Source: an uncultured cyanobacterium
GTDB lineage: Bacteria > Cyanobacteriota > Cyanobacteriia > PCC-6307 > Cyanobiaceae
Assembly: GCA_963697335.1 (NCBI GenBank)
Contig: CAVONQ010000008.1
Coordinates: forward strand, 54,487-118,486
DNA: 64,000 bases
Reading direction: 5' to 3'
In this document: positions 57,836-63,622 of the stretch, one piece after another
Position numbering within the stretch: position 1 is the stretch's first letter
Layout of the letters: each line of letters opens with the position of its first letter
Made by a program: the position numbers and the translations under genes
The notes under the pieces: generated by a model
What the model was told of the DNA's origin: nothing
What the model saw: only the letters and a program-made list of their open reading frames with translations
Databases searched by the model: none

Positions 57836-58456
57836 TCACGCCCGAAGCAATTCCTGGACCAGGGGCCTGATGGCAGCCTGATCACGCAGCAGCTGGGGGT
57901 GTGTCGCCACCGGCAGCTCCGTGCGAGCGCCGATCGGCAGGACGGCGCGCCATCCCGGCAGCACGGCCAGATCGATGGCGGAGTAAAAGCTGTGGCACTC
58001 GATCCGGTGGAGGGTGTCGAGGTTGCCGTTGAGGCGCTCCAGCAGGCCGCTGCCCCACTTCAGACCAGCGATGCCTTTGAACAGGCGCCCGGGCCAAGGC
58101 TGAGCCGTGAGCGTTCCCTGCTGGGGACTGCCCACGCTGATGAAGCGCCGTGTGCGCTGGTGTCCCTCCAGCAGCTGGATCCAGCTGCGGGCAATGACCC
58201 CACCGATCGAAAAGCCGAGCAGGTCGATCGGCTGCTCCATCCCGAAGGTTGCCTGAATGTGGCCACCGAGCAGCTCAGCCGCCTGTTCGATCGGGGTGAG
58301 GCCGAAGCGCAGGGGAAGGGCAGGGATCAACAGATGCGGTCGTCGCTCCCCCAGCGCCTGCCGGAGCTTGTTGAACACCGCTGGGCTGTCGAGCAACCCG
58401 TGAACCAGAACCAGGGGAGGATTCGTGATTGGGAACCGTGCTGATACCAGGCCCAT
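57836..58456 (-). CDS. Alpha/beta-hydrolase (lipase/esterase)
   Basis: LVHGL, GFSIG (GxSxG), GSPQQGT, D and H of the triad. Confidence 0.85.
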   Translation of the reverse strand: MGLVSARFPITNPPLVLVHGLLDSPAVFNKLRQALGERRPHLLIPALPLRFGLTPIEQAAELLGGHIQATFGMEQPIDLLGFSIGGVIARSWIQLLEGHQRTRRFISVGSPQQGTLTAQPWPGRLFKGIAGLKWGSGLLERLNGNLDTLHRIECHSFYSAIDLAVLPGWRAVLPIGARTELPVATHPQLLRDQAAIRPLVQELLRA

Positions 58457-59273
58457 TCAAGACCACTGCCCCTCGAGGCTGCGAGGCTCGATGGGTGGAT
58501 CTCCCCTCCCCCAGCCCTGTTCAGCCTCTCGAATGGCTTCGCATCCTCCTCAAGGAACCATAAGGCCCGGAAACGCAGGACAACCAACTCCTGATCGAAA
58601 GTGACGTGACCCCCTTTATCTGTCCAGGCCTTATGAGAATGGGTGGTCATGGTCATGCGGCAGCTCCCTGCTGAGCTGCCTCCAGGGGCGTACGCCTCTG
58701 GAGGACCGAGTGAGGCTTGAACGTGTTGTACTCCCATCTCCAGCGATCGGCGAGGAGTTGAGCCTCTGGTGCTGTGGTGAACAGCTCAGTGTTGAAGAAC
58801 TCATCCCGGAATCGTCCATTGAACGACTCCGCAAAGCCGTTCTCCCACGGGGACGCCGGCTCGATGTAGGCCGTGCTGGTGGTGCTGCGGGCCTCACACC
58901 AGACGCGAAGAGCCTGGGCAATGAACTCCTGCCCGTTGTCCGATCGGATGAACGCTGGCGCCGGGTCGAGGCTGCTGAGATCCTCCAGCACCGCCACCAG
59001 ACCCTTGGCCTTGCAGCGCCTGCCCACCCGGATGGCCAGGCAGAGGCGGCTGTGCTCGTCGATCACGTTCACAGGAACTTGAGTCTGCGGCCATCGGCCG
59101 TGGAGTCGAACTGGAAATCCATGGCCCACACCTGGTGGGGATGCTCGGCTCGGTGACGCCTCACCGAGCCGTCCGCGGGCCGGTGCCCGCTTGCGCTTCC
59201 TGGGGGTAGGCCGCTGCAGGCCTTCCTCCTGCCGGATCAGGCGGTTGGCCATGCGGCGGCCCCAGCGAATGTG

Positions 59274-59302
59274 CGTCGCACCGCGATGTGCTTGCAGCGC
59301 AA
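59274..59302. repeat. Micro-insertion type B, copy 1
   Basis: CGTCGCACCGCGATGTGC, 17/18 identical to the copy at 59328. Confidence 0.6.
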
Positions 59303-59327
59303 CGACGCTCCGGGCTCAGAAGTTTCC

Positions 59328-59356
59328 CGTCGCACCGCGAGGTGCGCCTCACGGCG
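59328..59356. repeat. Micro-insertion type B, copy 2
   Basis: GCACC-GCGA-GGTGC and CGCC-TCAC-GGCG hairpins interrupting the OrfA end (DLA|GNF*). Confidence 0.65.
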
Positions 59357-59366
59357 CAGCAAGGTC

Positions 59367-59393
59367 CTACGGCTTCGCAGAAACCTTCGGCTA
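59367..59393. repeat. Micro-insertion type A, copy 1 (27 nt)
   Basis: CTACGGCTTCGCAGAAACCTTCGGCTA inside IS3 OrfA. Confidence 0.8.
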
Positions 59394-59509
59394 GAGCATC
59401 GCCTTCTCCGGCTCTGCTTCTGCCAGCAGCTTTTTGAGCCGGGCGTTTTCCTTCTCCAGCTGGGTCAGTCGCCTGGCTTCCTCGGCCTGCATTCCGCCGT
59501 ACTGCTGTC

Positions 59510-59760
59510 TCCAGCAGCAGCTGCTCTGGCGGCACCGAGGGCCGGCCCTCTGCGGCGTAGAGCTCACAGAAGGTGGGATTGAGTCGATCGAGAGCCTGAT
59601 CCGCCAGTTTCCGAATCCGCCGCAGCGGATGACTGGCCGGGATCCGCTCCTCAATCGACACGTAGGAGAACAGGGAGCCGCTGCTCTCCCGGTGACCTCG
59701 CATCTCAGATGGGCAGTTGGCCCATTTTCGCAGAGATGGCCGGGTTTTTCAGCAAACTCC
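59510..59760 (-). mobile_element. IS5-family 5' fragment
   Basis: End GGAGTTTGCTGAAAAA next to CTAG; MRG....LFSYVSIEERIP..HPLR..GRPSVPPEQLL, then truncated. Confidence 0.82.
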
Positions 59761-59897
59761 TAGTGTCCCGTCCCGGAGATTTGCGAGCAAAGTCGCTGGA
59801 GCTTCTGGAGGATTGAATCCGCCGTGGCGGTCCAGTTGAACGGAGCCTTGGTCTTGTTGTAGGCCGCCACGAACTGCTCGATCTTAGCGATCAGTTC

Positions 59898-59924
59898 CTA
59901 CTGCTTCGCAGAAGCCTTTGGCTA
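59898..59924. repeat. Micro-insertion type A, copy 2 (27 nt)
   Basis: CTACTGCTTCGCAGAAGCCTTTGGCTA inside the IS630 transposase. Confidence 0.8.
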
Positions 59925-60431
59925 GACGCTGGAGAAGCTGCCTCGCCGGATCGCCCGCTGGGTGATGATCCCGAACCAGCGCTCGACCTGGTTCAGCCAG
60001 GAGGCGTAGGTCGGCGTGTAGTGCACGTGGAAGCGGGGCCGCTGCGCCAACCAGGACCTGACCTTGGCGTGCTTGTGGGTGCAGTAGTTGTCCACCACCA
60101 GATGGATGTCCAGGCCCTCGGGGACGGACGTGTCGATCTGGCGCAGGAAGCCCAGGAACTCCTGGTGCCATGGCGGGGCTTGCACTGGGTGATCACCTCT
60201 CCGGTGGCGATGTCGAGGGCGGCGAACAGGGTGATGGTGCCATGTCGGACATAGTCGTGCGTCCGCCTCTCCGTAGTCCGGGCCCATCGGCAACAGCGGT
60301 TGGGTGCGGTCCAGCGCTTGGATCTGGGTCTTCTCGTCGATGCACAGCACCATCGCCTTGTCCGGCGGGTTCAGGTAGAGGCCGACGATGTCCCTGACCT
60401 TCTCCACAAGAACGGATCGGTGGAGAGCTTG

Positions 60432-60460
60432 TAGCCGAAGGCTTCCGCGCGAAGCGGTGG
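60432..60460. repeat. Micro-insertion type A, copy 3 (29 nt, opposite orientation)
   Basis: TAGCCGAAGGCTTCCGCGCGAAGCGGTGG between HRQKH and KLSTDP of IS630. Confidence 0.72.
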
Positions 60461-61260
60461 TGTTTCTGCCGGTGCGGCTGGACCGAGAAGGACTGCAGCC
60501 AGCGGTGAACCGTGGTCTTGGAGATGCCCGTCGCCGCAGCCAGGGAGCGGGCACTCCATTGAGTGCTGCCGTCGGGGGGCCTGGTCTGCAGAGGCCCGGT
60601 TCGATCACCTCGGCCACCGTGTCGTCCTCGTAGGGCGAGGACGCCCTGGACGCAGCTCGTCATGCAGACCTTCCAGACCCAGCTCCCGGTGCGCTCGCGC
60701 CACTTGCCGACGGTCATGCCCGTCAGGCCCATGCGGTTGGCGATCGATGTGTTGGTTTCGCCGCAGCACCGTACGCGAGCACGATCTGGGCACGCTGAAC
60801 GATCGAATGCGGTAAGGAGCGAGAGCTGGCGATGCTCTGTAGTTGCTGAACATCGTCGTTGCTGAGAACCAGAGGGGCCATCGGACGACCAAGCGACACG
60901 GAGCGCCCAGGGAGACGCTACTTATTTTATCAGTTACTTGCGAGACAGTACATTAGTTGGGCCCATTTTCATATCGCCAGCGCTTCACCAGTGGATGTCG
61001 CTTGAGGCGAGGTGCTGCCAAGGAGCTGGACTTCCAGCAGATCCATCCCGCCGCTGGGCAGCGGGGGCAGCAGAGGTTCACTTGGTGGGGCGCTGAAGGT
61101 TGCTGGCTTGCTGCTCAATCCCTGGCTGATGGGGTAGCGGCTGGTGGCGGACTGCTCACCCGTCGATGCGCTGGCCGCAGTGGCGATGGTAGTGCTGGTC
61201 TGACTCGATCGCTCCATGGAGGCCGGGCCTACCCGGGCTCGCTGGCCTGCGTGGTGAGGG

Positions 61261-63622
61261 TCATGGCGTTAGAGGTTCACCCGTCATCTGATCGCTGCTG
61301 CCCATGCTGCTTGGGCTATTTTTGCTGCTGGTGCTGAGCCCGCTGGTGTTGGTATTCAGGACTGGTGGACTCGGTTCTTTGACCGCCAAGCCGGTGGCAA
61401 TGGTCTGGCTCCCGGTGATCGGATCAAAGCTGCCCGTGCTGTTCGTGCCGATGCCGAGATCGCTGGCAATACCCATGACGCCGTCGCCGGATGTGCAGCC
61501 AAAGGTCTCGTCCTTGCAATCACTCCAATCGCTCAGAGTAAAATTATAGCTCTTCTTGGCGAAGGCGATTCCGTTGCCTGATCGCCTGGAAAAAGCAGTC
61601 ACCTCAAGAGTATAGTCTCCGGGATCAAAGTTGATGCCAGTATAAAAATCACCTTTCCGGGGCCCCAAACAGTGCATAGGGTTCAACATTTTCAACTCTG
61701 CTCACTTCACTTCCGCTTGCATCGGTTAAGCGCAGCTCCATGCTGCCCACGGATCCAATGAAGTTGCTATCGGTCGGCAGCGTGACGGCGAGAGTTGTAG
61801 GGCCAGCCCACTCACTGGTGCGATACACGCTGCCGTCCAGCAGGGAAGCAAAGGACTGATTCGTGTCCGTGTTGTAGAACCAACTGTGATCTGCTCGTTC
61901 AACCCGGGGAGTATCGAGAAATCGTACGTACTGACCCCAACATCGTCACCAGCCCCAGCGGGCTCCGAGAAGACTTCCACATCAAGGTTGTACTCCCCAG
62001 GGCCAAAGGGAATTCCCTTGAAGAAGTCACCTCCTAGATCCCCAAAGATTGCATAGGGCTCAACGTTACTCAATCCGACTGACCTGTCCACCGGCAGCAC
62101 TAGTAAGGGTGAGCCGCATGCTGCCTACTCCCTGTTTCACTCCCTCACCCGCTGTAGCAGCAAGGGTCAACAGACCAGGCAGCTCATCAGTGGTGAATGA
62201 ACCGTCATTGCCCAGGGAGTGACAAGCCGATCAGTCCGGGTGTTATATCTTCCGACCGTAAGATCATCGGCATCGAAGGAAGGTGAAGGTAATGTGTAGG
62301 CCCACACCTCACGGCCAGTGACGTCATCTTCGGCGGTGAAGTAAAGCATGTCGCCGGCTACTGTCAGGTCGAAAGGGGGAATGAACTGCCGCTGGGGTTG
62401 ATGTCCTGGAGCAGGACAGTGCCAGCCTCCGTACCGTCGCTCTTCCACAGCTCACGGTCATTGACCCCGTCATCAGCGCTGAAATACAGCATGTCGCCGA
62501 CGGCAGTCAGGGACCTGGGGAATGAATTGCCGCTGGGGTTGATGTCCTGGACCAGGACGGTGCCAGCCACGGTGCCGTCACTTCTCCACAGCTCAAAGCC
62601 ATTGACGCCCTCGTCGGCACTGAAATACAGCGTGTCGCCGACGGCAGTCAGGAACCGGGGGGATGAAGTGCCACTGCCTGAATTGATGTCCTTGACCAGG
62701 ACAGTGCCCTCCTCGGTGCCATCGCTCTTCCACAGCTCGTGCCTTGACGCCGTCGTCGGCGGTGAAGTAACAAGATGTCGCCGACGGGAGTTGGATTGTT
62801 TGCGCGGAATCGGACTTGACCCGCCACTGCCTGGATTGATGTCCTTGACCAGGACGGTGCCCGCCTCAGTGCCGTCACTCTTCCACAACTCCCTGCCACT
62901 GATGCCGTCGTCGGCGTAGAAATAAAGCGTGTCGCCGACGGCCGTCAGACTTATTGGGGAATGAAGTGCCACTGCCTGGATTGATGTCCTTGACCAGGAC
63001 AGTGCCAGCCTCAGTGCCGTCGCTCTTCCACAGCTCATTCCATTGATGCCGTCGTCGGCGCTGAAGTACAGGGTATCGCCGACGGCGGTCAGGAAAAGGG
63101 GGGGGGGGAACCAAGGCTCAACACGGGGAGCAGGGTTGATGTCCTTGACCAGGACGGTGCCAGCCTCAGTGCCGTCGCTCTTCCACAGCTCTGTGCCAGT
63201 GACGCGTCGTCGGCTGTGAAGTACAGCGTGTCGCCGAGGGTGGTTAGGAGATTTGGACCACCTCCATAGGGGGCATTGCTAAATGGGTTGATGTCCTTGA
63301 CCAAGACGGTGCCGGCCTCGGTGCCGTCGCTCTTCCACAGCCCTCCCCCAGTGGTGCCATCGATGGCTTTGAAGTACAGGGTGTCGGCGATAACAGCTGG
63401 GGACCATACTGTATATGCTGGTAGTGAGTAGCCACTGCCTGGGTTGATGTCTCTGACGAGAACTGTGCCTGCATCGGTGCCGTCACTCTTCCACAACTCC
63501 CTGCCACTGAGGCCGTCACATTGGCACTGAAGTACAGAGTGTCGCCCACGACCGTCGAAATAGACTGGACTCGAGTCATCGCTCCCGGGGTTGATGTCCT
63601 TGACCAGGAATGGTTCCGCCAT
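61261..63622 (-). pseudogene. ELWxxDGT-repeat surface protein with two C-terminal NVEPYA(I/L)FG domains; many frameshifts
   Basis: About 8 repeats of LTAVGDTLYF.ADDG..G.ELWKSDGTEAGTVLVKDINP; GAGGA RBS before ATG 63622. Confidence 0.8.

Follow-up and report, generated by a model that had tools for sequence, protein, structure and literature searches.

A 25-nt insert with two predicted mini-hairpins in transposase remnants and other flexible-genome genes of freshwater picocyanobacteria

The analysed stretch of DNA, which has a length of 64 kb and is referred to as the window, contains two degenerate insertion sequence (IS) remnants that carry three copies of a short insert (the element) and two copies of a different micro-insert. 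These features are arranged as follows, the strand of each element copy being the one on which it reads A-hairpin-A-hairpin-A.

58653..59510, minus strand: degenerate IS3-family element with the end of orfA (HTH_Tnp_1) and orfB (rve, rve_3), frameshifts and a truncated 5' side, delimited by Pfam, ORFs and alignment
59275..59301, minus strand: second, more diverged copy of a ~27-nt insert type at the start of the IS3 orfB, with three mismatches to the 19-nt core
59329..59357, minus strand: different hairpin micro-insert of ~27 nt that immediately precedes the orfA/orfB overlap of this IS3 and is found in some IS3 relatives but not in others
59369..59393, plus strand: copy 1 of the element in the IS3 orfA remnant, degenerate
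59511..59760, minus strand: 250-nt piece of a third repeated element, located between the two IS remnants and distinct from the micro-element
59790..60900, minus strand: degenerate IS630-family element (DDE_3, PF13358) with two micro-inserts and further small indels, 80–86% identical to its relatives
59900..59924, plus strand: copy 2 in the IS630-family transposase remnant (C-terminal part)
60432..60458, minus strand: copy 3 in the middle of the IS630 transposase remnant, in sense orientation, 27 nt long owing to two extra bases (CG) in loop 1

Both IS remnants also carry many other small defects. The third-element fragment recurs at C10 (twice) and C6 with 89–97% identity; the ORF overlapping it had no Pfam match at E<=0.001, and the fragment may be IS5-like. 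The insert type found at 59329..59357 occurs in 7 of 32 genomes of the genus, and contigs of two public runs (X1 and X2) skip exactly 27 nt at 59275..59301.

The original prediction, which was made from the letters of the window, had reported three repeats at 59367–59393, 59898–59924, and 60432–60460, and all of them are present, with zero expected by chance. In a scan allowing up to three mismatches, copies 1 and 2 matched the proposed consensus without mismatches at 59372–59393 and 59903–59924 on the minus strand, and 100 dinucleotide-preserving shuffles of the window contained no consensus match. Copy 3, which lies in the opposite orientation at 60432–60460, was recovered by an error-tolerant scan. 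The refined boundaries are 59369–59393 and 59900–59924 (25 nt each), and 60432–60458 (27 nt). No other credible copy occurs in the 64-kb window at up to three mismatches or up to four errors, in agreement with the earlier impression that the ~58 kb of host genes are free of copies; the sole extra match inside the window (C8:76363) contains four errors and no hairpins and was rejected. Searches of positions 58400–61100 with the covariance models of Rfam 15 returned no matches at E<=1.

On the transposase strand, copy 1 replaces the first A of an AAG (Lys) codon and copy 2 the first A of the AAG in GTC AAG GAG, which in both cases creates an in-frame TAG...TAG. The two TAG stops that had been predicted in the transposase frame thus are real in copies 1 and 2, where empty relatives have AAG. 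In copy 3 a TTC (Phe) codon was hit and the neighboring AAG was kept; its two extra bases shift the frame, and these CG bases are missing in the contigs of three public runs (X2, X3, and X5). The earlier proposal that each copy replaced an AAG trinucleotide therefore describes the location of copies 1 and 2 correctly (empty relatives read CTC AAG GAY and GTC AAG GAG) but does not apply to copy 3, and the base actually replaced is one T, or one A on the other strand. A translational bypass element, as in T4 gene 60 or the mitochondrial byps, was rejected for copies 1 and 2, whose take-off and landing codons are unlike (CTC...GAC in copy 1, GTC...GAA in copy 2).

The unit of the element comprises 25 nt of the form A-[CTGC TNC GCAG]-A-[AGCC TNC GGCT]-A. 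Each hairpin would have a 4-bp stem and a 3-nt loop. Both loops have the sequence GNA and are closed by C:G when the complementary strand is read, which is the sequence type of the very stable d(GCGAAGC) mini-hairpin. Among the matches listed, the base preceding the unit was T in 54, A in 18, C in 15, and G in 1 of 88 copies; since it varies by site, this base belongs to the flank and no target duplication is present. A structure scan of one genome per bacterial or archaeal species, in which hairpin 2 and the right half of hairpin 1 were fixed and the left half was free, yielded at least 122 stretches. A paired left arm preceded by AC was present in 77 of 88 matches in cyanobacterial records and in 6 of 36 matches in non-cyanobacterial records (among the matches listed), and the latter six appear to be genuine copies on possibly mis-binned contigs. 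In the free arm of hairpin 1, compensatory forms were observed (TG/CA in 44, TC/GA in 23, and CG/CG in 13 of the 88, among the matches listed), and even in hairpin 2, which was fixed by the search pattern, two copies of the genome studied here have a swapped GGC/GCC form. The two-hairpin model pairs 98% of the cells in an alignment of the 88 matches and beats every slid control. Double-change cells numbered 31, as compared to 8.1 +/- 2.1 after shuffling, and none of 500 shuffles reached 31. The middle base of the loops varies (T, G, or C), with constant first and third bases, and published work on GNA mini-hairpins, in its accessible parts, states the rule that only the middle loop base may vary (PMC13037366; PMC3201870). 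Judged from the alignment, the compensatory stem changes support the two-hairpin fold.

The mini-hairpins GCGAAGC and CCGAAGG, which the original prediction had seen on one strand, are thus backed by covariation, but the central hairpin GCTTC-GCA-GAAGC proposed for the other strand is not: of its five pairs, two are disrupted, in 22 and 33 of 68 distinct copies, and no compensating changes were seen. Nearest-neighbor DNA folding gave weak energies that did not differ from those of shuffled sequences (z +0.44 to -1.53); copy 2 formed two 4-bp hairpins on both strands, and copy 1, which has one mismatch in each stem, did not adopt the two-hairpin fold. As the copies were found by sequence pattern, degenerate copies are under-sampled, and the apparent conservation relative to the flanks is inflated.

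Evidence for insertion was obtained from homologous sites with and without the element. Seven IS630 relatives from other genomes of the genus, 80–86% identical, were aligned, and six of them lack both inserts. Empty relatives read GTC AAG GAG at site 2 (copy 2) and CAT TTC AAG at site 1 (copy 3); one relative (L063) is filled at site 1 only, and site 2 is empty in all seven. For IS3, 11 of 18 relatives are empty (ATG CTC AAG GAY), among them copies from genomes with many matches, namely 45 (G002) and 13 (G012), and 7 of the 18 are filled at the same codon. Because relatives of both IS lack the inserts, these are additions and not native sequence. The alignment to IS3 and IS630 relatives suggested by the original prediction thereby defined the empty sites, most of these relatives do not contain the repeats, and the proposed non-coding, hairpin-forming micro-insert added to both transposases is borne out.

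Filled and empty states also exist outside the IS elements. DUF3427 paralogs in the same genome are filled or empty at two sites, and 26 empty and 10 filled alleles were found among 36 distinct sequences of an MNT nucleotidyltransferase. At the seven sites where filled and empty alleles were compared, namely two in IS630, one in IS3, two in DUF3427, one in the MNT nucleotidyltransferase, and one in an ORF on C6 (whose empty state is a single paralogous ORF read by eye), the replaced base was a T in all seven. The net gain of 24 nt (25 for one T) means that the host reading frame is kept. In the closest filled/empty pair, the flanks are ~86% identical. Among contigs of other public runs, of which no run contained more than 0.42 of the sampled words, the empty IS3 form was seen in three runs, and one run bridges copies 1 and 2 in the filled state. 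Homologous sites carry the same element in a large number of independent assemblies, which speaks against an assembly artifact.

The genome studied here contains 11 copies, all of which lie in ORFs and none between genes. A genome-wide scan detected copies in four C-terminal DUF3427 fragments on C17 and in one unclassified ORF on C6, where the element, read in the other orientation, encodes YCFAEAFGY or YCCAEACGY instead of a single Phe. Further copies, detected by structure-based scans at C9:84335, at C18:166294, and a second time on C6, are located in DDE_Tnp_1-type transposase or unclassified ORFs. Nine of the 11 hosts were typed by Pfam as IS3, IS630 (twice), DDE_Tnp_1 (two ORFs that score just under the Pfam cut-off), and the four DUF3427 fragments, and the two host ORFs on C6 had no Pfam match. 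In the same genus, the element was found in 21 of 31 other genomes, and in other genera of the family in one of five. No copy was found in 25 genomes from other families of the class. Of the 61 relatives in total, 23 carry the element (none matched the reversed-pattern control). A wider draw from the family gave 73 of 201 genomes and 22 of 64 genera with the element, and one match to the reversed pattern; the copy number per genome ranged from 0 to 15, and several small-genome genera had no matches. The search of this and related genomes that the original prediction had proposed has thus uncovered many further copies (11 here, 73 of 201 genomes in the family). Records with the element were assigned, among the matches listed, to Cyanobium, freshwater Synechococcus, Vulcanococcus, and Prochlorococcaceae MAGs, and the element family is found across freshwater picocyanobacteria. 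The 119 credible copies among the loci examined fall into 54 flank clusters, which correspond to ~45 distinct sites because some clusters represent the same codon in diverged paralogs and two or three are doubtful. Carriage by phages or plasmids was rejected: three viral-contig matches all lacked hairpin 1, and a plasmid collection contained no full-length match and only 20-nt pieces in Ralstonia.

Hosts were typed by Pfam searches of translated flanks, with one representative per cluster (102 stretches), many of which had no Pfam match. IS3 hosts comprised two sites in orfA and four in rve; DDE_Tnp_1-type transposases accounted for five hosts and Transposase_mut for two. IS630 hosts matched HTH_32/HTH_29 at one site and were otherwise recognized by DNA alignment. 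NTP_transf_2 antitoxins matched in two of four flank clusters that share the Phe codon of an LFGS motif. Further hosts were DUF3427, HicB, Phd/UPF0175, AbrB/MazE, Gp49, HepT, and Uma2, and in addition two UDP-glucose dehydrogenases and one methylpurine (DNA) glycosylase. Most identified hosts thus are transposases of five IS families, toxin-antitoxin genes, and DUF3427, and this mixture of IS and non-IS hosts places the element in the flexible genome and not in IS only. With regard to the earlier suggestion that the element accumulates in, or targets, IS elements, accumulation agrees with IS being the commonest identified host, but targeting does not fit toxin-antitoxin, DUF3427, Uma2, UDP-glucose dehydrogenase, and DNA glycosylase genes as further hosts. 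For the annotation of such genomes, the element explains why transposase, antitoxin, and DUF3427 genes may be lengthened in frame by eight residues or interrupted by TAG-TAG.

Sequence preference around the target is weak, with C at -2 in 38, T at -1 in 35, S at +1 in 50, and R at +2 in 47 of 54 sites, and relative to the host gene 50 copies are in sense and 69 in antisense orientation. Several ideas about the target were discarded. A hairpin loop as target site is disfavored by pairing of positions -2 and +2 at 16 of 54 sites (21.6 expected), and a dipyrimidine requirement, as expected for UV lesions, by purines on both sides at 3 of 54 sites (4.7 expected; Fisher p = 0.32). A role as crossover point of the DUF3427 fragment array does not agree with fragment ends located ~10–25 nt from site B, and a TA target duplication like that of IS630 is contradicted by the variable first base and by empty sites that are not TA. 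An origin of the flanking A as a P-nucleotide from hairpin opening was rejected as well, this A being constant whatever base precedes it.

The history of individual sites was addressed with trees from which the insert columns had been left out in the case of IS3. Among 23 IS3 copies, the 8 filled ones are scattered among 15 empty ones; one filled copy (L033) lies inside a clade with two empty copies (support 0.993) and another (L037) pairs with an empty copy (0.962). In the MNT tree, 10 filled genes are scattered among 26 empty ones across two deep subfamilies. The filled MNT genes always carry the TC/GA stem form, with flanks only ~60% identical, and one of them is identical to empty relatives over 33 bases upstream of the site. 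The interspersion of filled and empty alleles fits repeated gain or recombination. Empty alleles are regarded as ancestral, since loss of the element by simple deletion between its TAG repeats would yield TAG and not AAG. Either the same T was hit repeatedly or filled alleles move between homologs by recombination; the constant stem form within a gene family favors recombination, and the ~45 unrelated sites still require true insertions.

Taken together, these data probably describe a lineage-wide family of very small insertion elements that reaches new sites by a trans-acting activity and is then spread with its hosts and by recombination. The trans-acting activity would handle the folded element as single-stranded DNA; within a gene family, a filled allele would spread with its mobile host and by recombination between homologs, which would explain why the same codon is refilled with the same stem variant. 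The window copies, in turn, may be old passengers inside dead IS copies. Several observations count against a mobile insert. The copy number is low, recent movement is not demonstrated because no filled/empty pair exceeds ~86% flank identity, the interspersion on the trees can be explained by recombination alone, and the replacement of one base by 25 fits no transposition chemistry known to us. The original prediction had suggested looking for a co-occurring HUH gene, and this search was negative: Y1_Tnp (PF01797), the Y1/RAYT candidate, occurs in 2 of 32 genomes of the genus and is absent from the genome studied here, and no mobilizing enzyme was found. No solo halves and no larger units bounded by two hairpins were detected in this genome, and no triple units in any sequence examined; single units could not be distinguished from chance. 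As a small, structurally sharp, low-copy family with well-defined empty sites and an unusual signature (one T replaced, +24 nt), the element has clean properties that make its mechanism testable by association over a few hundred genomes and in culturable strains.

A different explanation of the stop codons, already hinted at by the original prediction, is that the element is a silencing device aimed at transposase genes, which it disables by stop codons. In two of the three window copies TAG...TAG falls in the transposase frame, five IS families contribute transposases to the hosts, and the examined IS copies of the multi-copy, presumably active type lack the insert (6 of 7 IS630 and 11 of 18 IS3 relatives), all of which would agree with such a device. 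However, the element is open in five of six frames, and TAG...TAx arises only if it is in antisense and has replaced the first A of an AAx codon; this class, one of six orientation/frame classes, accounts for 32 of 119 copies. Copy 3 and many others read through as 8–9 extra residues. The codon positions hit (26, 13, 2.5, 27, 30, and 0.8%, as determined by a GC3-based frame inference that is noisy in pseudogenes) follow the shares predicted from base composition and the -1 preference (30, 12, 8.5, 26, 19, and 4.6%), and codon-aware insertion was likewise rejected on these grounds. The target context is short and weak, and non-IS hosts (MNT, DUF3427, UDP-glucose dehydrogenase, and DNA glycosylase genes) are common. 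The two window copies with TAG stops would owe them solely to a hit on the first A of a Lys codon in the stop-bearing orientation. Nothing suggests that the stops are aimed at transposases; with stops confined to one codon/orientation class and the multi-copy IS examined being empty, a dedicated IS-silencing role is not supported, the disabling of IS once proposed is at odds with the single stop-giving class and the composition-like codon positions, and we regard a silencing device as very unlikely. Even less credence is given to a REP/REPIN-type repeat moved by a RAYT, or to a palindrome-associated IS200/IS605 derivative moved by a Y1 HUH transposase. Short GC-rich hairpins do follow (G)TAG on the GNA strand, but only 2 of 32 genus genomes contain PF01797, and one of these lacks the element; this genome has no candidate (the control search was positive in 6 of 14 known genomes), the copies are intragenic and few, and neither solo half-sites nor larger hairpin-bounded units exist in it. 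That the inserts are a native part of the transposase, or an assembly artifact, can practically be dismissed: several genomes have IS3 relatives with the insert at the same codon, as a native part would be, but empty alleles, including those of multi-copy IS, outnumber the filled ones in the IS630 and IS3 alignments, which contradict this reading, and the same 25 nt occur in unrelated genes, in many independent assemblies, and in contigs of other runs.

The element might alternatively be a functional DNA signal, in which the double mini-hairpin serves as a single-strand signal (for priming, ssi-like, or for protein binding) that is useful to horizontally moving DNA and kept by selection, a few ancient insertions having been spread by host-gene mobility and recombination. 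The compensatory changes that keep the stems, the near confinement of the insert to flexible-genome genes, and the same stem variant in all filled MNT genes despite ~60% flank identity agree with this explanation, as does the occurrence of CCGAAGG and related mini-hairpins at the primase recognition sites of phage G4 and RSF1010 ssiA, reported in the accessible part of a review (PMC13037366). It is nevertheless rather unlikely: the orientation to the host gene is not consistent (sense in 50 and antisense in 69 copies), a few events would hardly account for ~45 distinct sites, decay is seen in copy 1, with a mismatch in each stem, and in the degenerate L002 and L047, and the search method biases the conservation estimates. 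The preferred reading, a mobile family with host-borne spread, has a bolder extension that we consider unlikely, namely a new mode of insertion in which a folded single strand of 25 nt with two mini-hairpins would replace one nucleotide without target duplication and without a transposase of a known family, perhaps by a host- or island-borne activity that also uses it as a single-strand signal on horizontally moving DNA. If true, picocyanobacteria would harbor the smallest mobile DNA with a defined structure and offer a tractable route to how SDR-like repeats move.

Among known systems, miniature inverted-repeat transposable elements (MITEs) derived from IS630/Tc1-mariner, which duplicate TA, resemble the element in that most of its copies are bounded by TA...TA and IS630 is present in these genomes. 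However, the first T belongs to the flank (T 54, A 18, C 15, and G 1 of 88, among the matches listed), empty sites are TT, AT, or CT and not TA, and one T is lost and none duplicated; terminal inverted repeats are also missing, the ends ACTGC... and ...GGCTA not being reverse complements and the hairpins being internal. Palindrome-associated elements of the IS200/IS605 type have subterminal hairpins and are moved in trans by a Y1 TnpA in a pure insertion 3' of a fixed tetranucleotide, whereas for the element no Y1 gene is present in this genome, a base is replaced so that the insertion is not pure, and the upstream context is weak. Rickettsia palindromic elements are selfish DNA of ~100–150 nt inserted in frame in protein genes. 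They share with the element the location of palindromic repeats inside ORFs, the kept frame, and the readthrough as extra residues, but belong to another phylum, are larger, and are not known to be tied to mobile or defense genes. REP/REPIN sequences and their RAYTs, as characterized in the accessible part of the literature (PMC6006769), likewise are short GC-rich hairpins that probably act as single-stranded DNA and have a TAG-containing 5' side (here on the GNA strand). They differ in being extragenic, with hundreds of copies and one long imperfect palindrome, whereas the element is intragenic, has ~10 copies per genome, and consists of two minimal 4-bp hairpins; moreover, no RAYT (Y1) gene co-occurs with it (2 of 32 genus genomes). 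With d(GCGAAGC) and other GNA mini-hairpin DNA the element shares, on one strand, two GNA loops closed by C:G in which the middle base alone varies; that work, in the parts accessible, concerns a biophysical motif with a few replication-origin examples, in contrast to the dispersed genomic insert described here.

The closest known kind are the small dispersed repeats (SDRs) of the Nostocaceae, of which SDR1-8 of Nostoc punctiforme and relatives were reportedly described by Elhai and colleagues in 2008. To our knowledge, very small mobile-like dispersed repeats have been described for Nostocaceae only, and their mechanism has never been found. SDRs and the element have in common a size of ~21–27 nt, no coding capacity, dispersed copies, hairpin potential, and the lack of a known mobilizer, and in both cases presence or absence between homologous sequences serves as evidence of mobility. 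According to the accessible part of a 2018 paper (PMC5861425), SDR-like repeats were not found outside the Nostocaceae, and our literature search did not turn up a description of a comparable element from Cyanobium or its picocyanobacterial relatives. The two differ in lineage, with the element being absent from all 25 genomes from other families of its class, and apparently also in sequence. Further features that set the element apart from the SDRs are its two GNA-type mini-hairpins, the replacement of one T, the low copy number, and the nearly exclusive location in coding sequence of the flexible genome.

The IS3 remnant of the window carries, besides the 25-nt micro-element, a second type of micro-insert with a length of about 27 nt, which consists of two overlapping GC-rich hairpins and is present in two copies:

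59329-59357, minus strand: copy A, just upstream of the orfA/orfB overlap
59275-59301, minus strand: copy B, in the start of orfB

This insert is unrelated to the 25-nt micro-element, and the presence or absence of the two across the IS3 relatives varies independently. The orfA frame gains a TGA from the ~27-nt insert. It was detected in 7 of the 32 genomes of the genus set, and the five of its places for which the host element could be assigned are all IS3 relatives.

Two further features were recognized next to the insertion sequence remnants, the second by direct reading of the window sequence:

59511-59760: a 250-nt piece between the IS630 and IS3 remnants
~61300-63600, minus strand: a long gene made of tandem repeats

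The 250-nt piece, which has further copies on contigs C10 (two, 96-97%) and C6 (89%), resembles the initial part of an IS of a third type, presumably IS5-like; it had no match in Pfam. The unit of the tandem-repeat gene returns every 140-190 nt around '...gttgatgtccttgaccaggac...', and the gene appears to be interrupted by several frameshifts, one of them at a G run near 63100.

Complete 25-nt micro-elements were also found in their usual host genes in six genome contig records (L091, L135, L142, L153, L162, and L174) labelled as Rubrivivax, Mesorhizobium, Bradyrhizobium, Acidovorax, or uncultured bacterium. The presence of complete elements under these non-cyanobacterial or unclassified MAG labels suggests that the records are mis-binned or mislabelled picocyanobacterial contigs, or that the host genes were transferred. 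On contig C8 of another genome of the genus, G023 (loci L213 and L030), a copy inside a Uma2 gene lies ~2.4 kb from a Y1_Tnp gene, one of only two in the genus; this proximity is probably a coincidence.

In the genome of the window, one array (locus L227) combines the micro-element with gene fragments:

C17:33000-40520: five DUF3427 C-terminal gene fragments, all in one orientation

Four of the five fragments contain the 25-nt micro-element, and the fragments end 10-25 nt away from one of the micro-element sites. Interleaved with them are toxin-antitoxin cassettes (NTP_transf_2 with HEPN, Fic/Doc, and two DUF5615). The array looks like an integration hot spot, where every arriving cassette carries a fresh copy of the 3' end of the gene.
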